Virus record (IMG/VR): IMGVR_UViG_3300005529_000006
Span: 1 to 64,000 of that record
DNA from: a virus
Reading direction: 5' to 3' (one strand)
Length of the DNA: 64,000 nucleotides
Position numbers and translations under genes: made by a program. Of this stretch, positions 5,351 through 58,468 are shown piece by piece (the first letter of the stretch is position 1; each line of letters begins with the position of its first letter). The notes under the pieces are model-generated. The model did not search any database and had not been told where the DNA came from. It worked only from the letters and a program-made list of their open reading frames with translations.

Positions 5351-5561
5351 AATCTTGGTAATACTGACAATGATTGTTCCCTTCCGCGTCCAGTCCACCT
5401 CTTTCATTGAACCCGAAGTGTTCACATTCCTCCGGGATGAACTGTTCTCCAGTAGCTTGCAACCACACTTCGTTCATGACCACACCTAGGTGATGCTCCG
5501 TCCAAGAGTGGCCGCAAACACATATGCCCGAACATTCCGGCCCACTGTATCTAGGATTCAC
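5319..5561 (-). CDS. Cys/His-rich small protein, candidate anti-sigma or zinc-binding partner of the sigma factor
   Basis: Its start overlaps the sigma gene end by 11 nt; motif CSGICVCGHSWTEHH. Confidence 0.45.
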   Translation of the reverse strand: MNPRYSGPECSGICVCGHSWTEHHLGVVMNEVWLQATGEQFIPEECEHFGFNERGGLDAEGNNHCQYYQDSGTSCPSGKS

Positions 5562-6078
5562 GTCCCCTCCTCATCTTTTCCGCAATATCAAACCACTTCT
5601 TACACGCCCCACCCACAGTGATCCCCAACCTCTCTCCGATCTCCTCATGCGTGAGCCCTTCCAATCTCATCCTCACCACCAACTTCTCCTCATCATCCAA
5701 GACCTCCATTGCCTGCTCCAACTCCGCCTTTGCAAGCATGGCTCGGCCTTGTCTTTCCTCATCTCCTAATGTCTCCTCCAACGTGTCCACGGATATCTCA
5801 GGGTGCGTGATCTTCTCCCTCAAAGAGAGATTGCACATTTGCGTCACAATCGCCTGGAACCACGTACTAAACAGGCTCTCTCCCCTGAACGTATGGGCCT
5901 TATCAATTGCCTTCCACACGGCATCGGCCACAATATCCGGCCTATACTCCCCCAACTTCAACCAACAAACCGCGAACGCATGTCTGCGGAGGAGAGGAAT
6001 CAGCAAGTCCAACGCCGCTCGTTTCTCCTCCTCAGTCTGCGCACTCTGCCATAACGCGAACGCCTCATTCTCCTTCAT
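5551..6078 (-). CDS. ECF-type sigma-70 family RNA polymerase sigma factor
   Basis: Region 2 (DAVWKAIDKAHTFRGESLFSTWFQAIVTQMCNLSLRE) and region 4 HTH (LEGLTHEEIGERLGITVGGACKKWFDIAEKMR); 175 aa. Confidence 0.75.
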   Translation of the reverse strand: MKENEAFALWQSAQTEEEKRAALDLLIPLLRRHAFAVCWLKLGEYRPDIVADAVWKAIDKAHTFRGESLFSTWFQAIVTQMCNLSLREKITHPEISVDTLEETLGDEERQGRAMLAKAELEQAMEVLDDEEKLVVRMRLEGLTHEEIGERLGITVGGACKKWFDIAEKMRRGRES

Positions 6079-10373: not shown

Positions 10374-10404
10374 GCTTCCTTCGTTTACTTCTACCCAATA
10401 AAAA

Positions 10405-10436
10405 AGCCCACCCTTTCGGGTGGGCCTTGTCTGCCT
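10405..10436 (-). terminator. rho-independent terminator (minus orientation)
   Basis: Stem GCCCACCC/GGGTGGGC with loop, followed by UUUUUUAUU on the minus-strand transcript; about 38 nt after the SPFH gene stop. Confidence 0.55.
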
Positions 10437-10473
10437 GTATTTGAGCGAAACCGGAGAGCTTCGGGACTCCCCT

Positions 10474-11352
10474 TTATTGTTTTGAATTTACAGGCAAATT
10501 GAATAACAATCCGCCACCGGCACCTGTCATCACACTTGGCACATCTCCATGCCAGCGATCAACAGCTTTGTCCTGGATAGCGAGTCGCCGCCACTCTAAC
10601 AACTGAGGTGTAAGGCTCTCAGTCAGCTTTTTGTTGGCTTGCGCTTCACCATCAGCTTGAGCGATATGCGCTTTGGCCTCACCTTCAGCCTGCGCCACTC
10701 GCTTCTGCGCTTCCGCTTGAGCAGTCAGCACTTCATTCTGAACTTTCAGTGCAATTTGCTGCGCTTGCATCTTCGCATTGATAGCTTCAATGATCTGCTG
10801 CGGTGGACGAGGAGAACCGATCAAACCAAAACTCTGAATCTGCACTCCCAAATCCTTCGTGCCATCTTGCACACAACCCCGCACATCATCCAACAGCGGC
10901 TGCACATTGCTCATCAACTGATCCACAGTGTATTTCCCACCGTGGCTGGTGAAGCAATCCCGCGTGACATTGTGCAGATACCCAAAGGTAAACTGCGTAA
11001 TATCGTCGGTGCGGAACTTCACATAAAACGCTGGCACCTTGGTGGAATCGAGCTGATACGAAAGGTTCACGTCAACATTCACCGTCATGCCCCCGTTCGT
11101 ATTGAACGTGAAGGACTCATCGCCCTCCGAGTTCTTCGCCGTCCACACGTACGTTTGCACATACGTGGGATATTCCATGATGCTCGTTGTGAACGGGTTG
11201 TAGAACACCCAACCCGTCGTGGTGGTGTAATCCTGTACCCCACGATGCGTTCCGGCCATGTCTACCACAATTCCCACATGGCTCGGGTTAATCCGCGTGC
11301 ACCCCACTCCTGCCATTAACAGGAGCACTACCCCCAACAGACTCTTTCTCAT
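10474..11352 (-). CDS. SPFH/band-7 (stomatin/HflC-like) lipoprotein
   Basis: Signal peptide MRKSLLGVVLLLMAGVGC (lipobox-like); band-7 core; C-terminal coiled coil AQAEAQKRVAQAEGEAKAHIAQADGEAQA. Confidence 0.65.
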   Translation of the reverse strand: MRKSLLGVVLLLMAGVGCTRINPSHVGIVVDMAGTHRGVQDYTTTTGWVFYNPFTTSIMEYPTYVQTYVWTAKNSEGDESFTFNTNGGMTVNVDVNLSYQLDSTKVPAFYVKFRTDDITQFTFGYLHNVTRDCFTSHGGKYTVDQLMSNVQPLLDDVRGCVQDGTKDLGVQIQSFGLIGSPRPPQQIIEAINAKMQAQQIALKVQNEVLTAQAEAQKRVAQAEGEAKAHIAQADGEAQANKKLTESLTPQLLEWRRLAIQDKAVDRWHGDVPSVMTGAGGGLLFNLPVNSKQ

Positions 11353-11536
11353 GCTTCTTCTCCTTTTTCCAGACCCGACGCAAGATAGTGGGGACAACAA
11401 TACCCCACGAAACTAAAAACAACCCCGCTCCCAAGAACAACTGAGTGTCACTGGGAGCGTCCATCATAGAGAGAGCGATGGTTGTCACTCTCATCATGAG
11501 CAAGAACAACAAAGCCGTAAGTATCGCTTTCTTCAT
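11288..11536 (-). CDS. small membrane protein (NfeD-like partner candidate)
   Basis: Two TM helices; immediately upstream of the SPFH gene, with overlap. Confidence 0.4.
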   Translation of the reverse strand: MKKAILTALLFLLMMRVTTIALSMMDAPSDTQLFLGAGLFLVSWGIVVPTILRRVWKKEKKHEKESVGGSAPVNGRSGVHAD

Positions 11537-32306: not shown

Positions 32307-32621
32307 ATGGCCAACAAAACAATGGCGGATCTCTATAAGACCGACAAGGCGACTTGGGAATATATCTCTGTTCCTGAAGAGAACGTCCTTGGTGAGGTGC
32401 ACGCTGATATCGTCATCAACACCGAACGTTTTCGTGCAGGACAGACCTACCTGGTTCCCAAGCTAGTAGCGGAAACCGTCCGTGAACGCCTGAAGACCTA
32501 TCAGAGATCGTGTATGCGCATCATGTCCCCTAAGAAGGACACAGCCGCAGAACAGGCAGTCGCAGTTGGCAGTGCCAACGCAACTGTCCCGGTTGTAGCA
32601 GATGCCAGCTTGATCCAATGA
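32307..32621 (+). CDS. hypothetical protein (104 aa)
   Basis: ORF. Confidence 0.45.
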   Translation: MANKTMADLYKTDKATWEYISVPEENVLGEVHADIVINTERFRAGQTYLVPKLVAETVRERLKTYQRSCMRIMSPKKDTAAEQAVAVGSANATVPVVADASLIQ

Positions 32622-32995
32622 CTTGGGACAACTGGAAAGATGCTCTCCTAGCCCTAACCCTCTGGCGAGAAGCCAGAGGGGAAGGCAGGCGAGGTATGGA
32701 AGCCGTAGCGTGCGTTATTCGTAACCGCGCTGTTGGTTTGGACCAGATTGCTGCGATCTCTAAGAAGTGGCAGTTCTCCAGCCTCACGGCTCCCGGAGAT
32801 GCCATGCTCGTCAAATGGCCCCTCCCAGGCGACGTGGCTTTTGAAACAGCCATGGACATTGTATCGAACCTGGCGCTCCTTCCAGATATCACCAACGGTG
32901 CGACTCACTACTTTAATCCCAATGTTGTCCGTCCACCTTGGGCGGCAAGCATGACCAAAGTAGCCTCCATCGGTCGTCACGATTTCTATAAATGA
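32618..32995 (+). CDS. SleB-like cell-wall hydrolase (Hydrolase_2), putative endolysin
   Basis: LTLWREARGEGRRGMEAVACVIRNRA ... QFS ... ATHYFNP signature. Confidence 0.7.
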   Translation: MTWDNWKDALLALTLWREARGEGRRGMEAVACVIRNRAVGLDQIAAISKKWQFSSLTAPGDAMLVKWPLPGDVAFETAMDIVSNLALLPDITNGATHYFNPNVVRPPWAASMTKVASIGRHDFYK

Positions 32996-33597
32996 CCCCC
33001 CAGATTTTTCTGGTTCGCCACGCCAAAACCCTTCTCAACAACGCATCGTCCGAGGCTATTCGTGGACACTCGGATATTCCCATTTCTGGTGAAGGCGAAG
33101 AGGCACTTAAGCAAACCGCTGAATTCCTCAAAGGTCATTCCATTAAACGCATCTTGGCCAGCCCCTTGCAACGCGCCATGATGACCGCCTTATTTATTGC
33201 GGACAAAATAGGGGCAAAGGTAACTCCCAACTCCGGTCTCACTCCTTGGGATCTCGGCAACCTAACAGGCAAACGCATAGAAGAAGTTGCCCCCAAGATG
33301 AACTATTACCAGGACTACCCCGACATAAAAGTTCCTGACGGCGAAAGCTATAGAGACTTTTATGATCGCTGGTCGCAAGCCCTGGACCGGATGTTGGCCT
33401 ATGCAGAGAAGCACCCCGACGAAATTCTCACGGGCGTAGTGCACTCGCGCAATCTTCTTTCTCTTCCTTCCATCATTGGCAAGCGACCTATGGGCGAAGT
33501 CCCAGTCAAAGGCGGTCCTCCTCCCGAGAGCGTAACTCGCGTCTACCTCGATGATGACACCTGGAAATACGAAACCATTTTTGAATTAAAGCAATGA
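32992..33597 (+). CDS. histidine phosphatase (phosphoglycerate-mutase-like) family protein
   Basis: IFLVRHAKT...RGHSDIPISGEGE...ASPLQRAMMTA; ATGA overlaps on both sides. Confidence 0.65.
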   Translation: MTPQIFLVRHAKTLLNNASSEAIRGHSDIPISGEGEEALKQTAEFLKGHSIKRILASPLQRAMMTALFIADKIGAKVTPNSGLTPWDLGNLTGKRIEEVAPKMNYYQDYPDIKVPDGESYRDFYDRWSQALDRMLAYAEKHPDEILTGVVHSRNLLSLPSIIGKRPMGEVPVKGGPPPESVTRVYLDDDTWKYETIFELKQ

Positions 33598-34109
33598 ACT
33601 TCCTAAAAAAGATTCTCCCCTGGATTGGAGCAGCTGCTACGGGCAACGTCCCGGCGCTTGTGTCCATGGCCGCGAACGCGGTTAGCGGAGCCCTCGGTAA
33701 CAAGGTTGACTCCAGCGTCGATTCCATTGTCTCCGCAGTGCAAGGCGCAACACCCGAACAGCTCGTAGCCTTAAAGCAAGCAGAGTTGGATTTTCAAGCC
33801 AAGATGCAAGCTATGGGCTTCTCTCACGAAGAGGAGCTTGCTCAGATTGAGGTCGCAGATCGCGACTCGGCTCGGGCCCGTGAAATCAGCGTTCGTGACT
33901 TCATGCCCAAGGTTCTCGGTGGGGGAGTGGTCGCGGGTTTCATTGTCGCTACGTTCCTCATCCTCACAGGTCACGGCAAAGCCGATAGCGTGATGGCCGG
34001 AACCCTTATTGGTTATCTCTCCGCAAAGGCAGAGCTTGTCCTCGCCTACTACTTCGGTAGCTCCGCTGGATCTGACCGCAAGACAGAACTCCTCGCCCAA
34101 GGTAAGTAA
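33594..34109 (+). CDS. holin-like membrane protein (resembles 3-TM GTA-type holins)
   Basis: Gly-rich N-terminal helix, ADRDSARARE motif, C-terminal TM segments; position after the lysin. Assignment from recollection. Confidence 0.4.
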   Translation: MNFLKKILPWIGAAATGNVPALVSMAANAVSGALGNKVDSSVDSIVSAVQGATPEQLVALKQAELDFQAKMQAMGFSHEEELAQIEVADRDSARAREISVRDFMPKVLGGGVVAGFIVATFLILTGHGKADSVMAGTLIGYLSAKAELVLAYYFGSSAGSDRKTELLAQGK

Positions 34110-37100
34110 TGAAGAAATACATTCTCCTGTTATTTTTGCTTGTCCCACTATTTGCTTGGGGACAAGCCAGTCGTGTGGATGGTCAGGTACTGGGGCCGAA
34201 CGGTCAGCCCGTTCATTTCCCCCTGGTCCGCGTTTGTACGGATACTTCTAACCTTGGTTCTGGGACGGTCTATTGCGGAACCACAAGCGGGGGACTAAAA
34301 ACCCTATTCACCGACATAACTGCTCAGGTGCAGTGTACCGGGTCCAACGGTTGTGCCAATCCGATCACTGGCGACTATAACGGCAACTACCATTTTTATT
34401 CCGCCCCTGGTAAAGCCATCGTTGAAGTTATTGTCAACGGTGTAGTTCAGGGGGATACCCCTGACACCATCATCCCCTGTGATCCCGATTTCAATTGCGG
34501 AACAGGCACTGGAGGTTCGTCCAGTATTCCCTTGGGTTCGCAAGGGCAATTCATTCAGTACACCGGAGTCGGAGATCTCACTAATCAAATCGGTCCCTCC
34601 AACATGCGGGATCTCACCGGCACTCTCACAATCCCAGATGTCTCGAATGTGGACTTTGGGGGACCGGGGGTAGGCAGTGCGCAGTTTAGTATGCGCGGGC
34701 TTAACTCTGGATTGGTTGTGGTTCGCGTGCAGGACGCGGCAGGTAATTACACCCTAACTTTACCAAACGGTCCTGGGCTAGCTAACCAAGTCCTAGCCAC
34801 AGATGGTGCAGGCAATCTCTCCTTTGTGACCCCTGCCGCAAGCGCTGTAGGTGCAGGCGCAGCCGGACAGGTAAGCGTCTACAACGGTCCTAATAGCGTA
34901 GGTGGTGACGCTCTCTTTACAGACTCAGGCAACACCCTCGCCTATACAGGCACCACCTTCACCCTCGGTAATGCTACCGCTGGAGTATTTAATACCTTTG
35001 ATGGTTTTAGTATAAGCACTGGGACAGGCATTAAGGATACAATCTCCAGCGGCACTAGCACCTCCGCTGGCCTTACATCCGGCAGGCACCTTATCATTCA
35101 AGCCCACGCCGGAACATCCACAGGCTTTGGAGGAGACCTATATCTCCAAGCTGTAGGTTCTACTTTCTCTGGGAACCAATCCTTCTCTCCGGGATGGGTC
35201 TATGTTCTGGGTGGAGTAAATACTGGCTCTAGCGGTGGCGGCATCGCCTTAATCCCCGGTGTGGGGAACACCACTCCTGCTTACGTCACAATAGGTTGTA
35301 ACGCCTCCAACGGCAGCCCTTGCGGCTCTCCGGGCAATCCTTCCAACCCCACAATCACTGGCAAGGTGGCGTTCGTAGGCAAGAATGGCGGCTCGGTCTT
35401 CTTGACCGTGCCGGACAACGTGGGTGGAGCTGTTACCTTAACGCTCCCTACCTCCACGGGTACGAATGGCCAAGTGATCTGCACGGACGGCACGGGAGTG
35501 CTGAGTTTCTGTAACCAAACTGGCGGAGGCGGGAGCGTATCTGGAAGCGGTACTACCAACACTCTTCCTAAGTTTACCGCTGCTACGGTCCTCGGAAACT
35601 CCGGCATCACGGATAACGGAACAACCGTCAACACAGCGGAGAACCTCTCGGTTGCATCCTCGACCGCTGCTACAGGTATTTCAAACGTCAACTCTCCGTT
35701 CTTTCAGGTCGCAGGCAACTCTTGGAACGGCGCGTCTGTCGCAGATGTCTGGAGCTTCCAGAACGTCGCTGGCGCAGGCACAAACCCCACCCAAACGCTG
35801 ACGATTACTCATAGCGGCTCAAGTGGTGCAGCCTCGATCTCGGCTGCCTTCCCCTTCACTATTGCGGGCTTAACCAGCACAGGCAACGTCAACTTAGGTG
35901 GAGCCTCTTCGGTAATCAACTCTACGCTCGGGAACGGCGCTCCCAACAACGCAACTTGCATTTCCACTGGACAGGAATACTTCCAGTTGGACGGGACCGC
36001 AGGGCAAGAGAAGTGGTATTGCAAGGGCAACGTCTGGACTCAGCAACTCAACTCAGGTGCGGCTGGAGCTAACGTCCAGTTAAGCAACCTCTCGGGTACG
36101 ACCGCGATTCCAGTCGCCCTTTTGCCAAACGCGGCTGGCACCTTGGCCTTCGGTAGCAACGCGCTCCCTTGGACCAGCGTGTTCATCGGTGGTGCAGCCA
36201 CAAACAACATCCAGCTTACGGGCACCGCAACGAGTGCTAAGGTAGCCACTCTCCCAGACAACACAGGCACGATTGCCGAATTGAATCTGGCGCAGACGTG
36301 GACTGCCAATCAAACATTTCCGGTTGTAATCTCTTCAGCCGCCAATCCAGCCAATGCCGGGTTTCTCCGCTTCTCGTCTGGAGATGCCCTCAGCTTCCGC
36401 AACAATGCGAACTCTGCCAATGTCAACGGCCTGAGCAAAGATACCTCGGATATTGTCCAAGTAGGCGATACGGCGGGTATCAAGCTAGCGGGTCCCCTCT
36501 CTAGCGTGGGCGCTGGCTCCGCACTGACGATTCGACCCACTCTGCAAACTGTCAATGGCACGGGTGGGGATTTGACTGTCGCCGCAGGTAATACCTCCGG
36601 CACAGGGGCCAACGGCAACCTTCACCTTTTGGCGGGCTCCGGCGGTTCTGGTACTCCCGGCGCAATTGACATCGGAACTTCCCCGTTCGCTGTCACTCTT
36701 CCAAACGACACTAGCAACGGAACTCTGCAATTCAATCTTGTCAGTGTTACCTCCACTGGCAACGCGATTCAAACCCCTGCTGGCTCCAATGCAGGCGTAG
36801 TTGGTATTGCGATCAGCGGCGCAGGCACTTCCGGTAGCGCAACCGTTGTCCAGCTCGGCCAGGTCAATTGCGTATTCGATCAGGCTGCCACACCTGGAAA
36901 CTATGTTGGCATCTCCGTTAGCAATAATGGGCAGTGCCATGATATCGGTGCAGTTCCAACTATCAACACTCAAGCCGTTGGAACAGTCTTGAGTTTGGTA
37001 TCGGGCACGACCTACAAGGTCCTCGTTGATCTCGGCTCGGCTCCTGGGGCGAACAGCAACAATACTGTCATCACTAACCCCGGCAGTACACAGCAAATCC

Positions 37101-39094
37101 AAGCTACCGCGCCTACCGCTGTTTCTCTTGTTGTAAAGCAACCTACCAGCGGGTCGGTTGATATTTTCCAAGTCCTGCTAGCCAACGGCACCAAAGCTTT
37201 CTACGTAGACAGCACGGGTGTTGTTCACTTCGGAACCGGGACTTCTTCGGTCACGTCTTCGGCGTTCATTAGTTCCGCTGCTAACCCTGCGGCTACGGGA
37301 GTTTTCCGTGCGGCATCTTCGGACGTTGGATTGGCTTTCCGCAACAACGCAAACACTGGCGATGTCACGATTGCCAAGAACAACTCCGATGTGTTGACCT
37401 TCAATGGCACTCCCGGCTTCGCGGTTACACAAGCCGGAGCAAGTTTCGGAGACACTGTATCCTTCACAACCCCCGCAGCAAACCGAACTATCACCTTTGC
37501 TGACCCCGGTGGGAATGACAGCGTGGCTTATCTCGCTGCGACCCAGACCTTCACGGGTAAAACTATTGGCACGGGTGGCTTGCTATTCGCTACCCAAACC
37601 GCTCCCGGCAACCCCGCTGGCGGCAACATCCTCCTGTATGCAGATAGCGGCACTGGCAACCTCGCTTGCTTAACCTCTGCTGGCGCAAACTGCTTGCCCT
37701 CTGCTGGAGGCGGCGGCACCGTAGCACTTAGCGCGATCACGGCTGCTACCAGTACACCCGCTGCTATTAACAACGCTAACTTCCCTCAGAAATGGAACTG
37801 GCAGCTTACGACCAACGGCACCAGTGGATTCACCTTTGGCGAGTTCGCAGCATCGACTGCCACTAGTTCTAACCTAGTAAACATCAAGACTCTCGCCTCT
37901 TCCACGTTAAACCCGTTGACCATTACTGCACTGGGCAACGTAAACGGACTTCAAGTAAACAACATCGGTGATCTTACCTTCTTGGGTACGGGCATGTTGG
38001 ATACTGGAACATCCTCCCAGACAGGTAGTGAGTGTGCCAATGAAGGTGTTACAGGTACAACCAACGGCCTCGTCGCCAAACTTAACACTTCCAACCAATG
38101 CATCAAGGCCACTACGTCTGATGTAGCTGGCGTGGAAGGTATCGTCGTCAAGGGCGGCGGCACAAGTGGTAACGCTGTCATCGCTACCTCCGGCGTGGTC
38201 AGTTGCACGTTTTCCAATACCGCAGTGGTAGGAGATTACGTTGGTGTCTCGACTACTACGGGTGGTGACTGCTTAGACTTAGGCTCTCAGCCTACCGCAG
38301 GCACACAGGTCTTAGGACGGGCGTTGACTGCTGGTGCAGGTAGCCAATCTGTCCTCGTCTACGGGCGCGGGATGCTTGCAATCACAGGCGTACCCAACCG
38401 CGTCACTACAGCCTTCGCTGGTGGTGTTCTTACTCTGTCTCTCCCTCAGGATATCGCCACCACATCAATCGTCCAGTTCGGCGGAGTTAAGAGCGGCACT
38501 TCTGGTATTTCCGGCTCCAGCGGCACCAACTCTTACGATGTCCGTTGCGGCATTGATGGCACTGCTTCTCAGGTCTGTGTGCTCACGGTTCGTGGCGCAG
38601 ACTTCTCCGGCACTGGCAACAACAACGGCGGTGCCTTCGTAGCGAGAGGCGGAAACACTGGCTCCAACGGTTCAGGTGTTGCCGGGAACGCTGACTTCCA
38701 AGCTGGACAAGACACAGGAAGCGGCGGAAACAACGGTCACATTCAGATCGACGGCGCTTATGTCAAAGGCGCTACCTACACTACTGGAAACACTCAATGC
38801 TTCACTGCTGACAATACCGTTCAGGATTGCGGCACTAGCGCGGTGAACTTCGTAGGTGTGGCTGTAAGCTCCAACGGCAGCTCCGCCATAGTCGCTCTCT
38901 CCGGCACTCAAGTCCTCGTCAACTATGACGCAACCGTTAGCCCCTCAGCGGGATGGTTCGCGTGCTCAAGCGCCAGCGTAGCTGGCAAAGCCACTGCCCA
39001 ATCAGGAGCTTGCTCCGCAGGCAGAACCATTGGAGTCATCGAAAAAGGTGGAACGAATGTTACGAGCGGTAACGTTACTCTGGCTCATTTCTAA
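34109..39094 (+). CDS. giant fiber-like protein (1661 aa) with N-terminal signal peptide
   Basis: MKKYILLLFLLVPLFAWG|Q; Gly/Thr/Ser/Ala-rich with internal ~300-aa repeats (SSAANPANAGFLRFSSGDALSFRNNANSANV / SSAANPAATGVFRAASSDVGLAFRNNANTGDV). Confidence 0.6.
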   Translation: MKKYILLLFLLVPLFAWGQASRVDGQVLGPNGQPVHFPLVRVCTDTSNLGSGTVYCGTTSGGLKTLFTDITAQVQCTGSNGCANPITGDYNGNYHFYSAPGKAIVEVIVNGVVQGDTPDTIIPCDPDFNCGTGTGGSSSIPLGSQGQFIQYTGVGDLTNQIGPSNMRDLTGTLTIPDVSNVDFGGPGVGSAQFSMRGLNSGLVVVRVQDAAGNYTLTLPNGPGLANQVLATDGAGNLSFVTPAASAVGAGAAGQVSVYNGPNSVGGDALFTDSGNTLAYTGTTFTLGNATAGVFNTFDGFSISTGTGIKDTISSGTSTSAGLTSGRHLIIQAHAGTSTGFGGDLYLQAVGSTFSGNQSFSPGWVYVLGGVNTGSSGGGIALIPGVGNTTPAYVTIGCNASNGSPCGSPGNPSNPTITGKVAFVGKNGGSVFLTVPDNVGGAVTLTLPTSTGTNGQVICTDGTGVLSFCNQTGGGGSVSGSGTTNTLPKFTAATVLGNSGITDNGTTVNTAENLSVASSTAATGISNVNSPFFQVAGNSWNGASVADVWSFQNVAGAGTNPTQTLTITHSGSSGAASISAAFPFTIAGLTSTGNVNLGGASSVINSTLGNGAPNNATCISTGQEYFQLDGTAGQEKWYCKGNVWTQQLNSGAAGANVQLSNLSGTTAIPVALLPNAAGTLAFGSNALPWTSVFIGGAATNNIQLTGTATSAKVATLPDNTGTIAELNLAQTWTANQTFPVVISSAANPANAGFLRFSSGDALSFRNNANSANVNGLSKDTSDIVQVGDTAGIKLAGPLSSVGAGSALTIRPTLQTVNGTGGDLTVAAGNTSGTGANGNLHLLAGSGGSGTPGAIDIGTSPFAVTLPNDTSNGTLQFNLVSVTSTGNAIQTPAGSNAGVVGIAISGAGTSGSATVVQLGQVNCVFDQAATPGNYVGISVSNNGQCHDIGAVPTINTQAVGTVLSLVSGTTYKVLVDLGSAPGANSNNTVITNPGSTQQIQATAPTAVSLVVKQPTSGSVDIFQVLLANGTKAFYVDSTGVVHFGTGTSSVTSSAFISSAANPAATGVFRAASSDVGLAFRNNANTGDVTIAKNNSDVLTFNGTPGFAVTQAGASFGDTVSFTTPAANRTITFADPGGNDSVAYLAATQTFTGKTIGTGGLLFATQTAPGNPAGGNILLYADSGTGNLACLTSAGANCLPSAGGGGTVALSAITAATSTPAAINNANFPQKWNWQLTTNGTSGFTFGEFAASTATSSNLVNIKTLASSTLNPLTITALGNVNGLQVNNIGDLTFLGTGMLDTGTSSQTGSECANEGVTGTTNGLVAKLNTSNQCIKATTSDVAGVEGIVVKGGGTSGNAVIATSGVVSCTFSNTAVVGDYVGVSTTTGGDCLDLGSQPTAGTQVLGRALTAGAGSQSVLVYGRGMLAITGVPNRVTTAFAGGVLTLSLPQDIATTSIVQFGGVKSGTSGISGSSGTNSYDVRCGIDGTASQVCVLTVRGADFSGTGNNNGGAFVARGGNTGSNGSGVAGNADFQAGQDTGSGGNNGHIQIDGAYVKGATYTTGNTQCFTADNTVQDCGTSAVNFVGVAVSSNGSSAIVALSGTQVLVNYDATVSPSAGWFACSSASVAGKATAQSGACSAGRTIGVIEKGGTNVTSGNVTLAHF

Positions 39095-49051: not shown

Positions 49052-50292
49052 TGGGTATCTACGATTCACTACTGGGTAGTTCCTTTTTAATGGGACCCAA
49101 CCAAGCGATGAGCATGAGTCGCCAACTTGGTGGACTGCGTGCTATGCAGATGATGCAGAGAGAGTCGCGCTATGCCGATCCTCGCCCCATGAGAAGCATG
49201 GGCGGGAGAACGCAAGCGTTCAATCCCTTTGGTGCGGTGGCTCCCGACCAGCCTGACTATTCTCAGTTCACCTTTAACCAGGACGCCCACAACATGGCGG
49301 GCAAGATGCTGGAGCCTTATGGCCTGCATCCCCTAGAGCCAAGCCAGGTAAATCCTTTTGCCCTCTTCCCTAATCGTGGGTTCTTCGGACGCCACCCAGG
49401 GATTACCAACGCTCTAGAAGGCGGGATCTTCGGTGCAGCCTCTGCACAAGGCGCAGACACCTGGGGAGAAGGCATCTCCAATATCGCTCGATCTATGATC
49501 GAAGGCCCGCAGATGCGGCACCAGATGCTGGAGCGCCAGTTTGCTCAACCCTTCGAGGCTGCCGCTGCCATGGAGAAACTCCACGGCCTGGGCCTGGAGA
49601 ACCAACTCCACGAAGCTCAGATCCAAGAGGCTCGGGCGCGGGCGGAGAAACTCGGACAAGATCCCTGGCCGAAGTATGGAGAGCGTTTCAACACGGACGA
49701 TGGCTCGGTGTATGTGGTAGATCAGAACACAGGTATGCCTAAGCAGGTAATGCCTCCGGGTTCCGTCTCTAAGCCTGACAAGGCTCCCACCGGAGTCCTG
49801 GGGATGTACGAGCCCTTCAAAGCGGATTATCTGAGGCGCAATCCCAAAGCCAACGAGGAGCAAATTCAAACCGCTTTCGCCAAGAGTCGCAGAGCCGGGA
49901 GTGCCGGACGCGCAGGCAAGAGTGTGATGGCAGTAGTTAATGGGAAGCTCCAGGAAATTAAACCTGGCGACCCCTGGCCTTCAGGCGCAACCTCCCCAAG
50001 CGTAGCCGAAGGCACCAAGGCAACTTACACCCAATCTCAATGGGACAAAGCCCACCGAGATGTCTTCATGGGCGCGGGAACCAAAGCCCGCTTCTGGCTG
50101 GACAAGAAACTCAAGAGCGGAGAATCTGTTGACTTCTCGAACGAGAAGCAGAAGCAGCAGTGGTTCCAAGAGAACTACGGCGACCGCCCACAGCCATTTC
50201 CTAATCTGCCGCAACCTTTTGGTGGCGTGCAGGTGCTGCCCTCTAGCGTGGTCAACACGCCCAACGACATCCCCGATAATCCTTACGAATAG
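49051..50292 (+). CDS. putative internal virion protein (413 aa)
   Basis: ORF in the internal-protein block. Confidence 0.5.
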   Translation: MGIYDSLLGSSFLMGPNQAMSMSRQLGGLRAMQMMQRESRYADPRPMRSMGGRTQAFNPFGAVAPDQPDYSQFTFNQDAHNMAGKMLEPYGLHPLEPSQVNPFALFPNRGFFGRHPGITNALEGGIFGAASAQGADTWGEGISNIARSMIEGPQMRHQMLERQFAQPFEAAAAMEKLHGLGLENQLHEAQIQEARARAEKLGQDPWPKYGERFNTDDGSVYVVDQNTGMPKQVMPPGSVSKPDKAPTGVLGMYEPFKADYLRRNPKANEEQIQTAFAKSRRAGSAGRAGKSVMAVVNGKLQEIKPGDPWPSGATSPSVAEGTKATYTQSQWDKAHRDVFMGAGTKARFWLDKKLKSGESVDFSNEKQKQQWFQENYGDRPQPFPNLPQPFGGVQVLPSSVVNTPNDIPDNPYE

Positions 50293-53200
50293 TGCCACAG
50301 AATCCTGACATCAGATCGGTCCTCGATCCTCTTCAGGTGGATAAGAGTCTCAAGAAAACCGCTTGGGACTCCTACTACGGAGCGAACAGCCCCGATGAAT
50401 TCCGCCAGAAGTTCGACTCCCTCGCTATCCCAAAGGAAGCTAAAAAGCAACTTTGGGATATGAAGTTTGGAGGGAAACCGAAAGTAAACTTCCCGATCCC
50501 ACAGCCCTTTGAAACTGGGCCACAGCTTCCGGAGAAACCGGAGCAGCCTGGAATTGTCTCCCAGGTCCTAAGTGCGGCCTCGAATATCCCCTTGCTGTCT
50601 GACTTGGGGATACCTTCGAGTCGTGGACCGATGCCTGTCAAGGGTGCAGGTGTAGCCGATGTGACTGGAGCCCGAGGTTATCCCGAGATGTATCAGGGAG
50701 CCAAGGAGTTCTATAACGCGGACCAATACGCAGATAAACGTCGCGCACAATACCAGGGAGCAGCTCGTACCATTGGTGGCGCGATGGAAGCGGCCAAGCC
50801 ACTGATGTATCTCTCCGCAGCGGAAGCCCCCATCGACTTCGCCGCAGGTCTTGCATTGAGTCAAGCAGGAAGTTATGGGGCAGAACATATCTCCCGAAAC
50901 TACTTCAAGGCTTCCCCTGAAGCGCAGCAGCTCTGGGGACAGCTAGGCGGATTCCTGCCCATGGCAGGAGGCATGGCACGGGGATCTATCCGTGGCTACA
51001 AAGAGCTTCGTTCCAATTTGGTTTCGAAACTAGCCGATGACATGTTGAAGCAAGGAGCTACGCCAGAGATGGCACAGCAAGCTGCTGAACATGCGGTGCA
51101 GATGTATGAAGCCACCGGGGACGCGCAACGCATTGGGGCGGAGAACGCTGAACCTCCGAGTGCTACAAAGGTTGCCAAGATCCAAGGAAGGAAGATCGCA
51201 GGTGGAGTGGTTGGAGCCGCACAGCACGCAGCTCCCCTGCCTGAAGAACAAAAGGCAACTCCTATTCCGGAGTTCCAGCAAGCCCCGGTCCCGACGGACA
51301 AGATCGCAACTCCCACGGAGACGTTCGCCCAACCGGAGACACCTAAGACAACTCCCGCCCGTGAGATACTGTCGAGTAGTCCATCTTCTGAGTCTGCCTT
51401 TATGGAGCCTCCGAAAGTGGAGGCTGCTCAGCCGACCGACGTGCGATCTGAGACTCGCCATAACATAACTACCGACGCTGTAACTGGAGAGCAGAAGGTT
51501 GCCCGCAAGGAACTTCCTCCTGCCCAGGAGCGGGCGCAGCAGTACGTCAACGACTATCAGAACTTCGACAAGGAGCAGCAACAGTTAGAGCGCTCCCTCA
51601 AGAACGGCAGACTAAAGAATGCCGACGCCACGCGCCAGCGAGTCGAACTCCTCAAGCAACTCAAGGACAAAGCCTGGAGGAACTATGTCCAGTACGCAGA
51701 CAGGGGAGATGTAGTAGATACCCTGAAGGGCCTGGCCCCTCAGCTCAAGTCTCTTGCCGATCAAAGCTCTCTCCTCCAGAGCATCGGCAAGCATCTCGCC
51801 GACGGCAGCTACACCCTCTACAAAGCAACTGCGGACAAGTCCAACAAGACTTATGTTCCGGATGACCTGATTCAGTCTGCCCTGGGCACAGGCCGCACGA
51901 ACGTAGTGCCTCCCGTCCCTAAGGACTTCGTTGACTCCTTACCCGAAGGCTCCTACAAAGAACAGCTCAAAGCTCTCAATCCTCGCAGCCAGGAAATCCG
52001 TCAAGCCTGGGTATCGAAGTATCTTCTCCAGACCTCCGGAGAAGTCCGCAACCAATACGAGGCGCTTAATGACCGCTTCAACGTCGCACTCAAAGTAAAA
52101 GGCGTGCGACCGGAGGAGTGGCTGCCCCTCACTGCCGAGAGCAAACCCGAACCCAAAGGCCTCCCCGCTTATCGCCCGGAGACTCCTGCCCCCGCTGTCA
52201 ACAAGCCTTCTGCCTCGGCTACCGAGCGCAACTCGATCATCGAGTACTACCAGAAGCAACTGGCTGCCGCTAAGACCGACAAGGATCGGCAGATGTGGCA
52301 GAAGTCAATCGAGAAAGAGCAGAAGAAACTCGGGAAAGTCCCTCCCACAGAGGTCCCCAAGACCGAACCTCCCCTACCTAAAAAGGGGTTCAGCGAACAG
52401 GAGTTGCCTGATGAGATGCGCTCCTTCCTCTCTGCCAATGCCACCATGGGCATGAGAGCGGACGGAGACATAGGCGCACTCCGTCAACTTGCACAGTTCG
52501 GCGACCCCAAAGTTTCTAAACGCGCCCGCCTCTATCTCAAGGCCCTAGGTCATGAAGTCCCCAAAGTTTCCAAAGCCAGCAAAGTGGAAAGTGCCCCATC
52601 AACCTCCGAGGGCACCCCTGCTGAAAAGTCTCTCGAAGCCGCCCAGAGCGCCCAGGCCGCAGGAAAACCCCTTTCGCCTCTCTCGCGGAAAGAAGTTCTA
52701 GATGTAGTTGACAAAGAAATAGCTAAAGCAGGTTTCGACAAAGCCATCGTCAAAGACATTCGCAAGCTGGTGCTCGACACCTACGCCCGTGAAGTGGCGG
52801 CAGGTAACGAGAACGCCCTTGAAGATGTCAAGGGGGTGATCCAATCTTTTGCGAACCAGAAGGGGGTATTCTCCTTCCGTCGCATACCGGGTACGCCGCA
52901 AGGCCCGTCCGTTTTCAGCAGACTCGCTGACACTCTAGACCGAACTCTCAACAAATCTGAACAACGCCAGCTCGCAGAGAACGTTCTCCGTGAAGGCACA
53001 GGCTCGCTCGCCAGGGACAGAGAAAAGGTTTTCCATCGCCTGGAGGATCACCTTGACCGCCACGACGGGGACAATGTAATGGAGTTCCGCGAGTTCATGG
53101 ACGCCGGTGAAGGCAAGCCAGGGGCACGCTTCCTCAATCCCCAAGACCAAGCCATCGCCAACGACCTGCACCAGATGTTCCAAGAACGTTGGGCAAAGCT

Positions 53201-55310
53201 CCAGCAGATGGGCATTGTTGATCCCACCAACGCGGGAATCCAAAACTATCTCAAGCACCTTTGGGAGCGCCCCAACCGCGCCATCGACAGGAACCTCCTG
53301 TTCGGTAAGCGCCCGATTGCAGGCCCAGGAACCTTTCTCAAAGAACGCTTCTACGACTACATGTCAGACGGTCTCGACGCAGGACTAAAGCCTGTCACCT
53401 ACAACCCCATCAAGATGCAGCTCATGGGGATGTTCGAGATCGACCGCTTCATCCGTGCACATGAGATGAAGGACGACCTTATGGCCTCCCGCACCTCGAC
53501 AGGTGCCAGGTTGATGAAGTGGTATAAGCTCGGGGAGTCAAAGCCTCCGGGCTGGCAGAAGATTGATGACCGCCTATTTCAACCGAAGTTCATGACCAAG
53601 AGCGGCCTCACCGAGGCTGGAGCATACTGGGCGCATCCTGACGTAGCCAAGGTCTTCAATAACTACCTCTCCACCGGATTGCAAAACGAAGCCTGGTATC
53701 GAGGGGCCCGACACTTTGGCAACTTCCTCAACCGGATGCAGCTCTCGACTTCTGCCTTCCACGCCACCTTCGAAGTCCTGAACTCAACGATCTCTGAAGT
53801 GGCTCTGGGTTTCCAGAAAGCATTTAACAACCGCGACTTCGGTGCCGCAGCCAAACATATCTTCCGTTCTCCTGTGGCTGCCGCTCATTACTGGAAGCTC
53901 GGCAAGATGATCGAAGCTGAATACCTGACACCTTCGAACAATCTCCAATTGGCTTCTCTCGCTAAGTCCCTGGAGATCGCAGGCGGCAGGATTGGCCTCG
54001 ACCCGCTCTACACTAACAACGCAGTCGAAGCTTTCCATCGTGCAGTGACCGACCGTTCTCTAAAAGCCCTGCCCCGTGCAGTAGATGCATTGGTGGAGAA
54101 ATCTTCTAACTGGCTCATGAAGAACATGGTCCCCCGAATCAAGATTGGGATGTTTGCGGAGATGGCCGACCATCGCCTCAACGAACTCATGAACGCCGGA
54201 GCCTCCCGCGAAACCATCTCGACTGAACTTGGAAAGCTCTGGGACTCTGTGGACAACCGCGCCGGACAGCTTGTCTATGACAACCTCTTCTGGAGCAAAA
54301 CGCGCAAAGACCTGGGCTTCTTAGTTATGCGTTCTCAAGGTTGGAACCTTGGTACGTTACGAGAACTCGGGGGAGGAATGGTCGATCTCGGCAAGATGTT
54401 CGGAGGGAACACCCGCTTGACCGAACGCACAGCCTACATCATGGCGATGACTGCAACCATGGGATCTCTGGGTGCGATCTACCACTACATGGAAACAGGT
54501 CAAGCACCCCGGAAGCCCGCAGACTATTTCTTCCCTGGCAAAGAGGGCCAGAAGAAATCCTTCCCCTCTTATATCCGTGACGTAGGTGCGCTGCTGCACG
54601 CCTTGAGTAGCCCCAACAAGCTTCAGGGTGTAGGCACGATTGCTGCCCACAAACTCAACCCAGAGTGGCAGCTCCTCTACGACCTCTACACTAACCACGA
54701 CTTCTACGACACACAGATCTATGACCCCGGAGATCCGGCTACCCGTCAAGTCTGGGATGTCGCAAAGTACATCGGGAAGCAGGCAACTCCTATCTCTATC
54801 CAATCTGCCATGGAACGGCACCGTACAGGTGAATCGTGGGGTAGCTCGGTGGGTGGCTCCCTCATGGGTATCACTCCCGCGCCCAAGTACATCGGTCAAT
54901 CCCCTGCGGAAGAGATGGCCTTCGAACTTGCCAAGCGCAAGATGGAATCCGGCCCACACTCCAAAGACGAGTTCGCCCGTGAGCAGGCTTTCCAGGAAGT
55001 ACGCCGCACTCTCGCACAGCACGGCAAGCTCGACTTCAACCGTGTTCGCCAGCTTGTAGCCGATGGCAAGGTCACCGCAGAACAGGTAGACCGTATCTAC
55101 GATGAGCAAGGCATGGGTGCCTTGGAGCGCCACGTCGCCAGATTAGACAACCTCAAAGACATGTTCACTATCTGGGATCTGGCCGACCCCAACGAAAAAG
55201 TCCAACTCCGCTCTCGTATTCTGGATGTTTACGATAACGATATCGGTCGCCTGTCTCAGGACCAGCGTGAGTACTACACTCGCAGAATTCGCAGTGAAGT
55301 GCTACACTAG
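50292..55310 (+). CDS. giant internal virion / ejection-type protein (1672 aa)
   Basis: Last and largest structural gene, Ala/Gln/Lys-rich; carries an in-frame motif copy (PLPKKGF). Confidence 0.6.
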   Translation: MPQNPDIRSVLDPLQVDKSLKKTAWDSYYGANSPDEFRQKFDSLAIPKEAKKQLWDMKFGGKPKVNFPIPQPFETGPQLPEKPEQPGIVSQVLSAASNIPLLSDLGIPSSRGPMPVKGAGVADVTGARGYPEMYQGAKEFYNADQYADKRRAQYQGAARTIGGAMEAAKPLMYLSAAEAPIDFAAGLALSQAGSYGAEHISRNYFKASPEAQQLWGQLGGFLPMAGGMARGSIRGYKELRSNLVSKLADDMLKQGATPEMAQQAAEHAVQMYEATGDAQRIGAENAEPPSATKVAKIQGRKIAGGVVGAAQHAAPLPEEQKATPIPEFQQAPVPTDKIATPTETFAQPETPKTTPAREILSSSPSSESAFMEPPKVEAAQPTDVRSETRHNITTDAVTGEQKVARKELPPAQERAQQYVNDYQNFDKEQQQLERSLKNGRLKNADATRQRVELLKQLKDKAWRNYVQYADRGDVVDTLKGLAPQLKSLADQSSLLQSIGKHLADGSYTLYKATADKSNKTYVPDDLIQSALGTGRTNVVPPVPKDFVDSLPEGSYKEQLKALNPRSQEIRQAWVSKYLLQTSGEVRNQYEALNDRFNVALKVKGVRPEEWLPLTAESKPEPKGLPAYRPETPAPAVNKPSASATERNSIIEYYQKQLAAAKTDKDRQMWQKSIEKEQKKLGKVPPTEVPKTEPPLPKKGFSEQELPDEMRSFLSANATMGMRADGDIGALRQLAQFGDPKVSKRARLYLKALGHEVPKVSKASKVESAPSTSEGTPAEKSLEAAQSAQAAGKPLSPLSRKEVLDVVDKEIAKAGFDKAIVKDIRKLVLDTYAREVAAGNENALEDVKGVIQSFANQKGVFSFRRIPGTPQGPSVFSRLADTLDRTLNKSEQRQLAENVLREGTGSLARDREKVFHRLEDHLDRHDGDNVMEFREFMDAGEGKPGARFLNPQDQAIANDLHQMFQERWAKLQQMGIVDPTNAGIQNYLKHLWERPNRAIDRNLLFGKRPIAGPGTFLKERFYDYMSDGLDAGLKPVTYNPIKMQLMGMFEIDRFIRAHEMKDDLMASRTSTGARLMKWYKLGESKPPGWQKIDDRLFQPKFMTKSGLTEAGAYWAHPDVAKVFNNYLSTGLQNEAWYRGARHFGNFLNRMQLSTSAFHATFEVLNSTISEVALGFQKAFNNRDFGAAAKHIFRSPVAAAHYWKLGKMIEAEYLTPSNNLQLASLAKSLEIAGGRIGLDPLYTNNAVEAFHRAVTDRSLKALPRAVDALVEKSSNWLMKNMVPRIKIGMFAEMADHRLNELMNAGASRETISTELGKLWDSVDNRAGQLVYDNLFWSKTRKDLGFLVMRSQGWNLGTLRELGGGMVDLGKMFGGNTRLTERTAYIMAMTATMGSLGAIYHYMETGQAPRKPADYFFPGKEGQKKSFPSYIRDVGALLHALSSPNKLQGVGTIAAHKLNPEWQLLYDLYTNHDFYDTQIYDPGDPATRQVWDVAKYIGKQATPISIQSAMERHRTGESWGSSVGGSLMGITPAPKYIGQSPAEEMAFELAKRKMESGPHSKDEFAREQAFQEVRRTLAQHGKLDFNRVRQLVADGKVTAEQVDRIYDEQGMGALERHVARLDNLKDMFTIWDLADPNEKVQLRSRILDVYDNDIGRLSQDQREYYTRRIRSEVLH
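52373..52391 (-). repeat. 19-bp motif copy G inside the 1672-aa gene (CCTACCTAAAAAGGGGTTC, in frame as PLPKKGF)
   Basis: Exact copy. Confidence 0.8.
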
Positions 55311-55389: not shown

Positions 55390-56259
55390 ATGAATCTTCG
55401 ATTTTGGGCAGGCAAATATGAAGCCTCCCTCGCCACGACAGTACGCAGAGACACCCGCGAACGCTACGGCATAGCCCTCAACCACATCCTGGAATACCTT
55501 GGCCCCCTCCATCCCAAGGATGTCTTCAAGATCGACGCCAAGAACTACATGGCCCACCGGCTCTCTAAGGGCCTAGCTCCCAACACGGTTCGCCAGGAGA
55601 TCTTGGTAGGCTGTGCTTTCTACAACTGGCTCATCGAAAACGAAGTCGTAGAGTACGGCCACAATCCGTTCTCCCGTGTCAAGAAGCCTCGCGCCCCTGA
55701 ACCACTACGTCGGGCACTCTCTAAAGACACTCTCGCCAAACTGTGGGCTGCTGCGGAGAAGAAAAGTGATCTGGTGATGTTGTCTGTGGCATTGCTTACT
55801 CCCCTTAACGCCAAGACAATTGCCATGCTGCAAAAGAGCAACTTCGATTTCGAGCGCAAGCAACTGGTGTGCGAGAGGAGCAAGACAGGTGTGGCCCTGA
55901 TTCTTCCTGTGGCCGATGAACTCCTGGAGCTGGTAGCTTCTCTCCCCGAGGGTCCCCTCTTCCCCAAGGTAATCCTTGACCGCAGGCCCGGCTCTGTGCT
56001 CTCCCGCCGCTTTGCGGTCCTAGCAAAAAAAGCCCTGGGGTTTAACCCAGGGCTACATGCGCTGCGCCATACCTTTGCAACCGACGCACTTCAAAGCGGA
56101 GTTGACATCCGGACCGTTCAAGCACTACTCGGCCATAAGTCAATAATGACGACCGCTCGTTATCTTGCGCCAGCGGACACTGAATCGGTCAGAGGGTTCT
56201 TGGAGACTAGGTTGCTGAAGCTTCAATCACCTTTGTCTCCGCCTCCTGAATCCCCGTAG
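55390..56259 (+). CDS. tyrosine recombinase, Xer-like (289 aa)
   Basis: C-terminal catalytic HALRHTFATDAL...LLGHKSIMTTARYLA (R-H-R-Y). Confidence 0.75.
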   Translation: MNLRFWAGKYEASLATTVRRDTRERYGIALNHILEYLGPLHPKDVFKIDAKNYMAHRLSKGLAPNTVRQEILVGCAFYNWLIENEVVEYGHNPFSRVKKPRAPEPLRRALSKDTLAKLWAAAEKKSDLVMLSVALLTPLNAKTIAMLQKSNFDFERKQLVCERSKTGVALILPVADELLELVASLPEGPLFPKVILDRRPGSVLSRRFAVLAKKALGFNPGLHALRHTFATDALQSGVDIRTVQALLGHKSIMTTARYLAPADTESVRGFLETRLLKLQSPLSPPPESP

Positions 56260-58086: not shown

Positions 58087-58468
58087 TTTCTCCTGGCCCG
58101 TTGATTCCGGTACCATCATACAAGACACCTGTTGCTCTGTCATCTAGCTCCGGATGTGATACGCTATACTCCAATAGACTAAGGAGGCCCCAACACGCAT
58201 GAGAAAGATGTGGCAATCCAGACTCTTCATCCAGTTCTTCTCCGGACCACCACTTCCAGAGGTGCCGCATGACTGCCGCGAATATGCGACTCCATTTCAA
58301 ACCCTTGCGCCAGTTATTGTCCTCATACTTCCCTGCGCCGAACGTGTACACTCGGCCTAGTTCCCACAACGGATAGGCTGGTATGAGGTCCAGCCTATTC
58401 TTCCCTCCATCGTCCTTCGCGCCTTCCTTAAGCTTACTTGTTTGCTGCAATTTCTCTTGCGAACTCAT
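57881..58468 (-). CDS. dATP/dGTP diphosphohydrolase-domain protein
   Basis: DDGGKNRLDLIP...FGAGKYEDNNWRKGLKWSRIFAAVMRHLWKWWSGEELDEESGLPHLSHA, the hallmark of the phage dGTP-diphosphohydrolase N-domain (recollection). Start trimmed to Met-42; about 200 nt overlap with the integrase start is unresolved. Confidence 0.6.
   Translation of the reverse strand: MSSQEKLQQTSKLKEGAKDDGGKNRLDLIPAYPLWELGRVYTFGAGKYEDNNWRKGLKWSRIFAAVMRHLWKWWSGEELDEESGLPHLSHACWGLLSLLEYSVSHPELDDRATGVLYDGTGINGPGENGSEKVSERKVVSQGKQEEGVGRQVEGGCQAFVWGTYDFCWSCGKRLNFCDCESSQVEGIGDSTGTPY

Follow-up and report, generated by a model that had tools for sequence, protein, structure and literature searches.

Putatively lipid-anchored SPFH proteins of phages and bacteria are encoded next to a predicted membrane hairpin

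The 64,000-nucleotide (nt) stretch of viral DNA analyzed here (hereinafter, the window; positions 1 to 64,000 of the IMG/VR record IMGVR_UViG_3300005529_000006) carries on its minus strand two overlapping genes, which encode an SPFH/Band_7 lipoprotein of 292 amino acids (aa; 10474..11352) and, immediately upstream, an 82-aa protein with two hydrophobic helices (11288..11536), hereinafter the hairpin protein. This locus is probably a two-gene membrane module that combines an outward-facing, lipid-anchored SPFH scaffold with a dedicated membrane hairpin and would be used for the host membrane in the lytic program. With less assurance, somewhat short of an even chance, it can be proposed that hairpins of 60-100 aa are an unrecognized, widespread and obligate partner of lipid-anchored, outward-facing, prohibitin-like SPFH proteins, that is, a second type of SPFH operon partner beside NfeD and a transmembrane (TM) fence, and that phages of Proteobacteria, Bacteroidota and Acidobacteriota build a membrane cage of their own with this pair during infection. 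The presence of an SPFH gene in a phage is routine; the new element is the conserved, sometimes fused, lipobox-linked hairpin partner, a family that appears to be undescribed.

The SPFH gene, identified with Pfam, PHROG, AlphaFold2 (AF2) modeling and Foldseek, runs from the ATG at 11352 to the stop codon at 10474. The ATG is preceded, at a spacing of 7 nt, by the Shine-Dalgarno sequence AAGGAG (11360..11365, minus strand, read from the sequence), which lies within the coding sequence of the hairpin open reading frame (ORF). Pfam family Band_7 (PF01145) matches aa 20-215 of the product (E 8.8e-29; 101.2 bits, cut-off 23.6), and phrog_200, annotated as "lipoprotein", matches aa 6-291 (E 1.9e-67). 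The N-terminus, MRKSLLGVVLLLMAGVGC, consists of a basic n-region, a hydrophobic core and a lipobox, MRKSLLGVVLLLMAGVG-C18, which conforms to the pattern [LVI..][ASTVG][GAS]-C with the cysteine at residues 15-35; the 3′ end of the hairpin ORF extends, in another frame, across the DNA that encodes this signal peptide (11299..11352, minus strand, located in the sequence). In 40 homologues (47-65% identity), Cys18 is invariant whereas Gly17 and Gly281 are nearly invariant, and every full-length IMG/VR relative listed has the lipobox cysteine, provided that its start is placed correctly (the start of L027 was mis-chosen, and L059 is truncated at a contig end). About 90 relatives that have a hairpin partner retain a Cys here. 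The lipoprotein signal peptide proposed in an earlier note on this DNA is thus supported across the family.

The layout of the protein includes the signal (aa 1-18), an SPFH domain (approximately aa 20-184), the coiled-coil segments CC1 (aa 185-246) and CC2 (aa 249-266), and a Gly-rich end (aa 270-292), GAGGGLLFNLPV. In the AF2 model, built with 40 homologues and with a mean predicted local distance difference test score (pLDDT) of 78.8, the SPFH domain is beta-rich, the Ala/Gln/Glu-rich stretch is a single predicted helix of 62 residues (aa 185-246) followed by a second helix (aa 249-266), and the Gly-rich C-terminal end is of low confidence and flexible. A Foldseek comparison of this model with PDB retrieves full-length subunits of SPFH cages, all with a probability of 1.00, namely prohibitin (8rrh; E 1e-13), HflK/C (E 2.5e-12), erlin (E 1.6e-11), stomatin (E 7.5e-11), QmcA (E 1.5e-9) and flotillin (E 1.6e-7), with the vault protein further down the list; at the sequence level, the best matches in PDB are QmcA (E 6.7e-6) and prohibitin-2. 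The SPFH fold, the lack of which the earlier note had named as the outcome that would speak against it, is recovered both by the Band_7 hidden Markov model and by the predicted structure, and the Ala/Gln/Glu coiled coil noticed there corresponds to the 62-residue predicted helix.

The conserved C-terminal GxGxGLLL of the SPFH protein occupies the position of the cap-closing strand in other SPFH proteins. By extrapolation from a published regression that relates the number of subunits to the length of CC1 (y = 0.178x + 10.2; PMC12624060), a CC1 of 62 residues would correspond to about 21 subunits, and both this length and the C-terminal motif are compatible with assembly of the protein into a ring or dome of ~20-26 subunits. 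In the three top Foldseek matches, prohibitin, HflK/C and erlin, the larger part of the protein is located on the non-cytosolic side, the same orientation that a secreted, lipid-anchored SPFH protein would adopt; judging from the signal peptide, the mature lipoprotein most likely faces outward from the cytoplasmic membrane. An Asp directly behind the lipobox Cys classically retains lipoproteins in the inner membrane of Escherichia coli. Asp follows the lipobox Cys in the copies encoded by the cultured phages P88, Fraca, SE_PL and phiE125, so that in these phages the lipoprotein would share the membrane of the hairpin; the residue that follows Cys18 in the window protein is Thr.

The hairpin ORF (11536-11288, minus strand), delineated from the ORF list, the sequence and a cross-validated profile, starts where the preceding gene stops (TGAATG) and overlaps the start of the SPFH gene by 65 nt in a different frame. 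Its product consists of TM1 (approximately aa 4-24), an outside loop of ~8 residues with the polar motif SMMDAPSDTQLFLG, TM2 (approximately aa 33-52), and a basic, Lys/Glu-rich tail, RRVWKKEKKHEKE. The tail beyond TM2 is ~30 aa long compared with 0-25 aa in most relatives, and the last 21 aa are a non-conserved read-through into the SPFH gene; both this tail and the long overlap are explained by the usual ATGA stop being out of frame in the window. The ATGA stop is lost (window, 11288-11352) also in the loci L009, L017, L019 and L031, such that the hairpin ORF runs 60-120 nt into the region encoding the SPFH signal peptide. The read-through tails are alike in hairpin relatives (…DGRH…, …GVHAD), only because the SPFH DNA beneath them is conserved. 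A +1 frameshift that would join the two window ORFs (the SPFH frame is open from 11400) was considered and dropped for lack of evidence.

Searches with single sequences fail for this family, and a profile is needed to detect it. The window hairpin protein matches no family above threshold in Pfam, PHROG or NCBIfam and, as a single query, retrieves nothing from an index of 5.8 billion proteins; against 1.84 billion representatives, a 913-aa tandem-repeat protein was retrieved but is spurious, being a sum of 12 weak matches. In contrast, a profile constructed from the upstream ORFs of other phages, with the window excluded, matches the window hairpin ORF at E 8.5e-14, whereas the runner-up among the 879 six-frame ORFs of the window reaches only E 0.33. 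Hence the hairpin ORF is not a chance ORF.

The pairing of the two genes is conserved. In the two closest phage contigs, the SPFH proteins are 65% identical to that of the window, the flanking genes are different, and an ORF of 60-72 aa with two helices and a recognizably similar loop is found at the equivalent position, ending in an ATGA overlap with the SPFH start. The upstream ORFs were surveyed in 80 IMG/VR loci with SPFH relatives (30-56% identity), 70 of them distinct, a partner being defined as a small ORF with at least two hydrophobic helices whose end lies between -60 and +120 nt relative to the SPFH start. Such a partner precedes the SPFH gene in 63 of the 70 distinct phage loci but only 19 of 378 (5%) other ORFs of at least 150 aa (Fisher p 3e-51, with loci that are not independent); in addition, the hairpin profile matches directly upstream of SPFH in 48 of 76 bacterial loci. 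The overlapping 2-TM protein pointed out in the earlier note is accordingly a conserved companion of the SPFH gene.

The alignment of the hairpin family is characterized by TM1 and then the polar-loop motif [LF]x[LM][MLI][NST]x[PAS][SND][TD], followed by five residues, a Gly (39 of 40 sequences), TM2 and the basic tail. On average, Lys and Arg together account for 1.57 residues per sequence in the first 8 positions, 0.12 in the loop and 3.4 in the 15-residue C-terminal tail, and from this distribution, under the positive-inside rule, both termini of the hairpin protein are predicted to be inside (N-in/C-in) and its loop outside. Pfam has no match for any of 40 members, and only two match a PHROG family, phrog_1130 ("membrane protein"); the copies in the databases are labeled "hypothetical protein".

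In-frame fusions of the hairpin with SPFH are found at 10 genome loci, mostly of candidate-phyla-radiation bacteria, Solibacter and Bryobacteraceae, and in 10 proteins among the 120 best database matches. The architecture of the fusions, TM1-loop-TM2-basic linker-TM3 (the former signal peptide)-SPFH, implies that the C-terminus of the hairpin is inside and the SPFH part outside, in agreement with the independent predictions. The AF2 monomer model of one natural fusion, P0061, has a mean pLDDT of 83, with the three N-terminal helices and the SPFH part predicted confidently. P0061 is encoded on a 78-kb phage-like contig (L183, Logan SRR28000493), where the segment 3996-9128 combines it with a TPM_phosphatase, PspA_IM30, an SbcC-like ATPase and an AAA ATPase; given PspA_IM30 and the fused protein, two membrane-stress or scaffold proteins are present in one phage block. 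Another hairpin-SPFH fusion sits on a cellular contig.

The hairpin partner co-varies with the lipobox. Among 108 distinct SPFH sequences, with the lipobox called by a regular expression, the partner is present for 88 of the 89 lipobox-type proteins and 5 of the 19 others (Fisher p 1e-12); once four cysteines missed by the regular expression were corrected by eye, the respective counts are 91 of 93 with the Cys and 2 of 15 without. These counts are inflated by shared ancestry, and the pattern is seen in several lineages. The Cys-less relatives, a betaproteobacterial clade and a few others, have an uncleaved N-terminal TM helix and no partner. The simplest reading of this pattern is that the hairpin would supply the transmembrane element that lipoprotein-type SPFH proteins have given up; physical contact between the two proteins is suggested by synteny, fusion and co-variation.

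Among the characterized SPFH systems, HflK/HflC of E. coli (PDB 7vhq, 7wi3, 9cz2) share with the window protein the SPFH domain, the long CC1, CC2 and the C-terminal strand (Foldseek E about 1e-12), and most of each protein projects from the inner membrane into the periplasm, the orientation also predicted for the window protein. However, HflK and HflC are two SPFH paralogues in a hetero-oligomer, each with an N-terminal TM helix, whereas the window pair consists of a single SPFH gene with a cleavable lipoprotein signal and a non-SPFH hairpin partner. The scores of the SPFH protein with the NCBIfam models of hflK (TIGR01933; 23.8 bits, cut-off 159.4) and hflC (TIGR01932; 16.5 bits, cut-off 134.4) are far below the respective cut-offs, and a search of the 82-aa hairpin protein for Band_7 yields no match, so that the hairpin is not a second SPFH paralogue. 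The best structural match (8rrh), as well as a match at the sequence level, is to the group of prohibitin PHB1/PHB2 and the prokaryotic p-prohibitin SPFH4, and PHB1/PHB2 resemble the window protein also in the compact size, the subunit number predicted from CC1 length (about 22) and the predicted non-cytosolic orientation. The identity with prohibitin is, however, only ~20%, and prohibitin is anchored by a TM helix whereas the window protein would be anchored by a lipid; furthermore, no operon partner has been reported for SPFH4 (PMC2636767) whereas the window family has one.

The SPFH-NfeD operons (QmcA-YbbJ, PDB 8z5g; YuaG-YuaF; PH1511-PH1510) are similar in that a small membrane protein is encoded directly upstream of, and co-transcribed with, the SPFH gene. 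NfeD, however, has a soluble domain of the oligonucleotide/oligosaccharide-binding (OB) fold, and its SPFH partner faces the cytoplasm, whereas in the window pair the partner consists of no more than a TM hairpin, with its short polar loop and the SPFH protein both predicted to be outside. No match to NfeD (PF01957) is obtained at E <= 0.1 for the window hairpin or at E <= 0.01 for 40 relatives, and the short tail beyond TM2 leaves no room for an OB-fold. The labels "HflK/C-like" and "NfeD-like" that the earlier note attached to the pair therefore fit only by analogy: the HflK/C pairing fails on the single SPFH gene and the low model scores, and the NfeD-like partner on the missing match and the short tail. 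The phage SPFH proteins of phrog_200 (Kayvirus MbpS, P88 gp12, phiE125 gp43, PVP-SE1 gp117) belong to the same family as the window protein, and in several of these phages an upstream small membrane gene is annotated. Unlike the window protein, Kayvirus MbpS has no canonical lipobox and follows MbpV, a partner with one TM helix, right after holA-lysK.

In phages, an SPFH lipoprotein is an ordinary accessory gene. Homologues were detected by tblastn in 837 of 50,697 GenBank phage records, all at less than 60% identity, and none of the GenBank phage copies reaches 36% identity with the window SPFH protein, which is closest to proteins encoded by uncultured soil-type phages (65%) and on chromosomes of Acidobacteriota (~50%). 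An exact-sequence look-up of this protein in a contig index retrieved no record. The hosts of the SPFH-carrying phages include Staphylococcus (275 records), Pseudomonas, Salmonella, Bacillus, Klebsiella, Escherichia and Erwinia, and further carriers are phages of Aeromonas, Burkholderia, Caulobacter and Prevotella as well as crAss-like phages. Both lytic and temperate phages are represented, the lytic ones including Kayvirus, N4-like, rV5-like and jumbo phages. A hairpin with the motif is encoded directly upstream of the SPFH lipoprotein in the cultured E. coli phages P88 (P2-like; gp11/gp12), Fraca (lambda-like) and BEU44 (N4-like; unannotated), the Salmonella jumbo phage SE_PL, Pseudomonas phage U2 and Burkholderia phage phiE125 (gp44/gp43). 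The "lipoprotein" matches of T5-like phages (saus132) were set aside because these proteins are of another SPFH type, TM-anchored and without a partner. Giant viruses of eukaryotes encode SPFH proteins too. In Salmonella phage PhiSH19 (L089), an ORF of 69 aa that is missing from the annotation lies in the 206-nt gap (74,931-75,137) upstream of the gene for a Vi01-like SPFH lipoprotein. The loop that connects its two hydrophobic helices is rich in Lys and Arg, a topology unlike that of the hairpin family; the next gene upstream of this ORF is annotated as "superinfection exclusion protein".

The closest cellular relatives of the SPFH protein (47-52% identity) come almost exclusively from Acidobacteriota genomes, on contigs of up to several Mb. 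At two Acidobacteriota loci, the chromosomal neighbors encode an S41 peptidase, LptD, RDD, PAP2 and DsbD, and a 78-aa gene overlaps the SPFH start. Chromosomal SPFH-hairpin loci indicate that the pair is a bacterial operon type carried by phages and not a phage invention. In a neighbor-joining tree, the Acidobacteriota chromosomal sequences form a tight clade, with the long-branched phage groups beside it; the tree has no support values, and accordingly no direction of transfer is drawn from it. The origin of the closest cellular relatives weakly suggests an acidobacterial host for the window phage.

The module can be envisaged as follows. The hairpin protein would sit in the cytoplasmic membrane with both ends in the cytoplasm and the conserved polar loop outside. 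The mature part of the lipoprotein would represent a complete cage subunit of the outward-facing prohibitin/HflK-C/erlin type (SPFH, CC1, CC2, C-terminal strand); following cleavage of the signal peptide and acylation of Cys18, some 20-26 copies may form a dome on the outer face of the cytoplasmic membrane. As the lipoprotein has no TM helix of its own, the hairpin would provide the membrane-embedded part, in a role comparable to that of the N-terminal helices of HflK/C or of the membrane part of NfeD in QmcA-YbbJ, and the dome would fence off a patch of the membrane. The module is a cellular operon type, with chromosomal copies in Acidobacteriota and fused ones in candidate-phyla-radiation bacteria, and circulates widely among phages. 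In the window, the pair is presumably transcribed with the early or middle minus-strand genes, up to a strong terminator, and would be used in the lytic program to stabilize or compartmentalize the host membrane. The module works in Proteobacteria, Bacteroidota and Acidobacteriota, and its target should therefore be universal, either the membrane itself or a machine such as FtsH. Of the conceivable functions, general protection or organization of the membrane is ranked above control of a membrane protease, for example FtsH, which in turn is ranked above exclusion of superinfecting phages.

Several observations weigh against this reading. The arrangement is not uniform: in PVP-SE1, one small gene separates the hairpin gene from the SPFH gene, and Kayvirus (MbpV) and DL54 carry a different small membrane protein in place of the hairpin. 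The counted loci are phylogenetically non-independent, many of them being derived from a single sample and a few clades. The lipoprotein might reside in the outer membrane, which would separate it from the hairpin protein; the residue after Cys18 is Thr, and the host is only presumed, so that the sorting rules may differ from those of E. coli. The papers that mention phage SPFH genes call their role unclear (PMC13239085, PMC7150955), and the Kayvirus paper speculates on Sec-dependent export (PMC7150955). Finally, a prophage HflK/C-like lipoprotein of Pasteurella multocida, likened to the window protein here by description only, was found in outer-membrane vesicles and has been studied only as an agonist of Toll-like receptors TLR1/2 (PMC9872710).

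The alternative with the most in its favor, albeit an unlikely one, is an HflK/C-like regulator of FtsH, an idea already present in the earlier note: the dome would enclose or exclude host FtsH, and membrane and regulatory proteins of phage or host would then be turned over differently. The closest structures, prohibitin, HflK/C and erlin, gate the degradation of membrane proteins and face the same side of the membrane; it has been noted that SPFH4, the prohibitin-like group of prokaryotes, is seldom found together with HflK/C and might stand in for them (Hinderhofer et al., 2009, PMC2636767); the universal occurrence of FtsH is in line with the great breadth of hosts in which the module is found; and the window phage, with its two integrases, is temperate. 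Nevertheless, the SPFH protein is an orthologue of neither HflK nor HflC, no FtsH-related gene was found nearby in phage or chromosomal loci, and the module is carried by many strictly lytic phages (Kayvirus, N4-like, rV5-like, jumbo), so that lysogeny control of the lambda type cannot be its general function. Superinfection exclusion, also raised in the earlier note, is less probable still; here an early envelope lipoprotein and its small membrane companion would keep the DNA of later phages from entering the cell, as T4 Imm/Sp and T5 Llp or Ltp do. The pair does belong to the early or middle genes, in the temperate relatives P88 and Fraca it is located in early operons near immunity or integration regions, and a neighboring gene in Vi01-like phages is annotated as a "superinfection exclusion protein". 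The SieB-like match (PF14163), however, is weak (12.9 bits against a cut-off of 26, E 0.082) and confined to TM helices, PADLOC yields no match for either protein, and a housekeeping role in the membrane is favored by the conservation of the operon, outside any phage context, in Acidobacteriota and candidate-phyla-radiation genomes.

A device for the timing of lysis, with a class II holin or antiholin (the small protein) that the SPFH protein would corral until lysis, appears improbable. The small protein has the generic features of holins (two TM helices, both ends inside, a charged C-terminal tail), and in Kayvirus mbpV-mbpS directly follows holA-lysK, with MbpV said to "resemble holins" (PMC7150955). 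However, the only muralytic gene found in the window, Hydrolase_2 at 32618-32995, is 21 kb away on the other strand, no match to a holin family was obtained, and neither occurrence in non-phage chromosomal operons nor fusion to SPFH would be expected of a holin. The reading of the pair as a two-component spanin, prompted by the overlap of the genes and the hairpin topology, was likewise discarded: such a spanin would combine an inner-membrane protein that has a large periplasmic coiled coil with a small, proline-rich lipoprotein of the outer membrane, whereas here the outside loop comprises only ~8 residues and the lipoprotein is a 274-aa SPFH protein. It is highly implausible that the small ORF is open by chance alone and accompanies a solitary passenger gene, SPFH. 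Alone, this ORF has no database match, and an overlap of 65 nt is unusually long; yet the overlap is explained by the lost ATGA stop, and the cross-validated profile match (E 8.5e-14), the retention of position, topology and motif in ~90 distinct loci, and the in-frame fusions lead to the rejection of this possibility.

The structures of SPFH cages (prohibitin, HflK/C, stomatin, flotillin, erlin) are being studied intensely, and what defines the membrane interface and the clients of these cages is a current question. A lipid-anchored SPFH protein with a separate, sometimes fused, TM mini-protein would be a natural split cage, which could reveal the purpose of the TM fence. The gene pair is one of the commoner unexplained accessory modules of phages, including therapeutic Kayvirus as well as N4-like, rV5-like, jumbo, and P2- and lambda-like phages, and with the two-gene unit present in the tractable phages P88, Fraca and PVP-SE1, the question of why phages carry SPFH proteins becomes directly testable. 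For the window locus itself the outcome is modest, one more, rather divergent, member of the family.

As the earlier note had held, the locus is borne by a phage. The window encodes a large terminase subunit, portal, major head protein, DNA polymerase, primase and two tyrosine integrases, together with a Sak4-like annealing protein and a fusion of an exonuclease with endonuclease VII, and belongs to a tailed temperate phage; megablast of its first 25 kb against GenBank phages gives zero matches. The SPFH pair is located within a block of minus-strand genes that spans the first 19.5 kb of the window, and genes for a sigma factor, a DUF551 protein and an AAA_5 ATPase are nearby. Downstream of the pair, an intrinsic-terminator-like hairpin with a T-run (10393..10428, minus strand), recognized by stem search and folding energy, starts 45 nt past the SPFH stop codon. 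Its 11-bp stem (10428-10403; 7 G-C pairs, GAAA loop) is followed by TTTTTTATT and is the longest among 24 terminator-like sites in the first 20 kb of the window; the 81-nt region folds at -35.4 kcal/mol (z = -3.5). The earlier note took this terminator to set the pair off as a unit, and it does end a transcription unit, but with the TGAATG junction to the upstream gene the pair is not self-contained. A sigma-70-type promoter was sought around the pair and none was found, possibly because the promoters are phage-specific; the sigma factor encoded at 5551-6078 (minus strand) is an extracytoplasmic function (ECF)-like phage protein with regions 2 and 4.

Further features of the window can be noted briefly. 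The segment 6722-9707 (minus strand) encodes the AAA_5 (MoxR/CobS-like) ATPase of 349 aa with a Cys-rich C-terminal tail, followed by an overlapping Cys-rich ORF of 193 aa and a 475-aa protein without a family; the PHROG matches of this block include phrog_249, "porphyrin biosynthesis", and the ATPase could be a CobS/CobT-like ATPase with a partner. The structural gene block includes, at 32618-33597 (plus strand), the Hydrolase_2 (SleB-type) cell-wall hydrolase, next to which no holin was identified, and then a protein of the histidine phosphatase superfamily. The two integrase genes, 55390-56259 (plus strand) and 56890-58143 (minus strand), are close and convergent (phrog_1, E 1.7e-41 and 2.7e-63, respectively), and the shorter one might represent a second recombinase or a copy that has been truncated. 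The structural block also includes two very large ORFs (34109-39094, 1661 aa, and 50292-55310, 1672 aa; plus strand), and the former starts with the signal-peptide-like sequence MKKYILLLFLLVPLFAWGQ.

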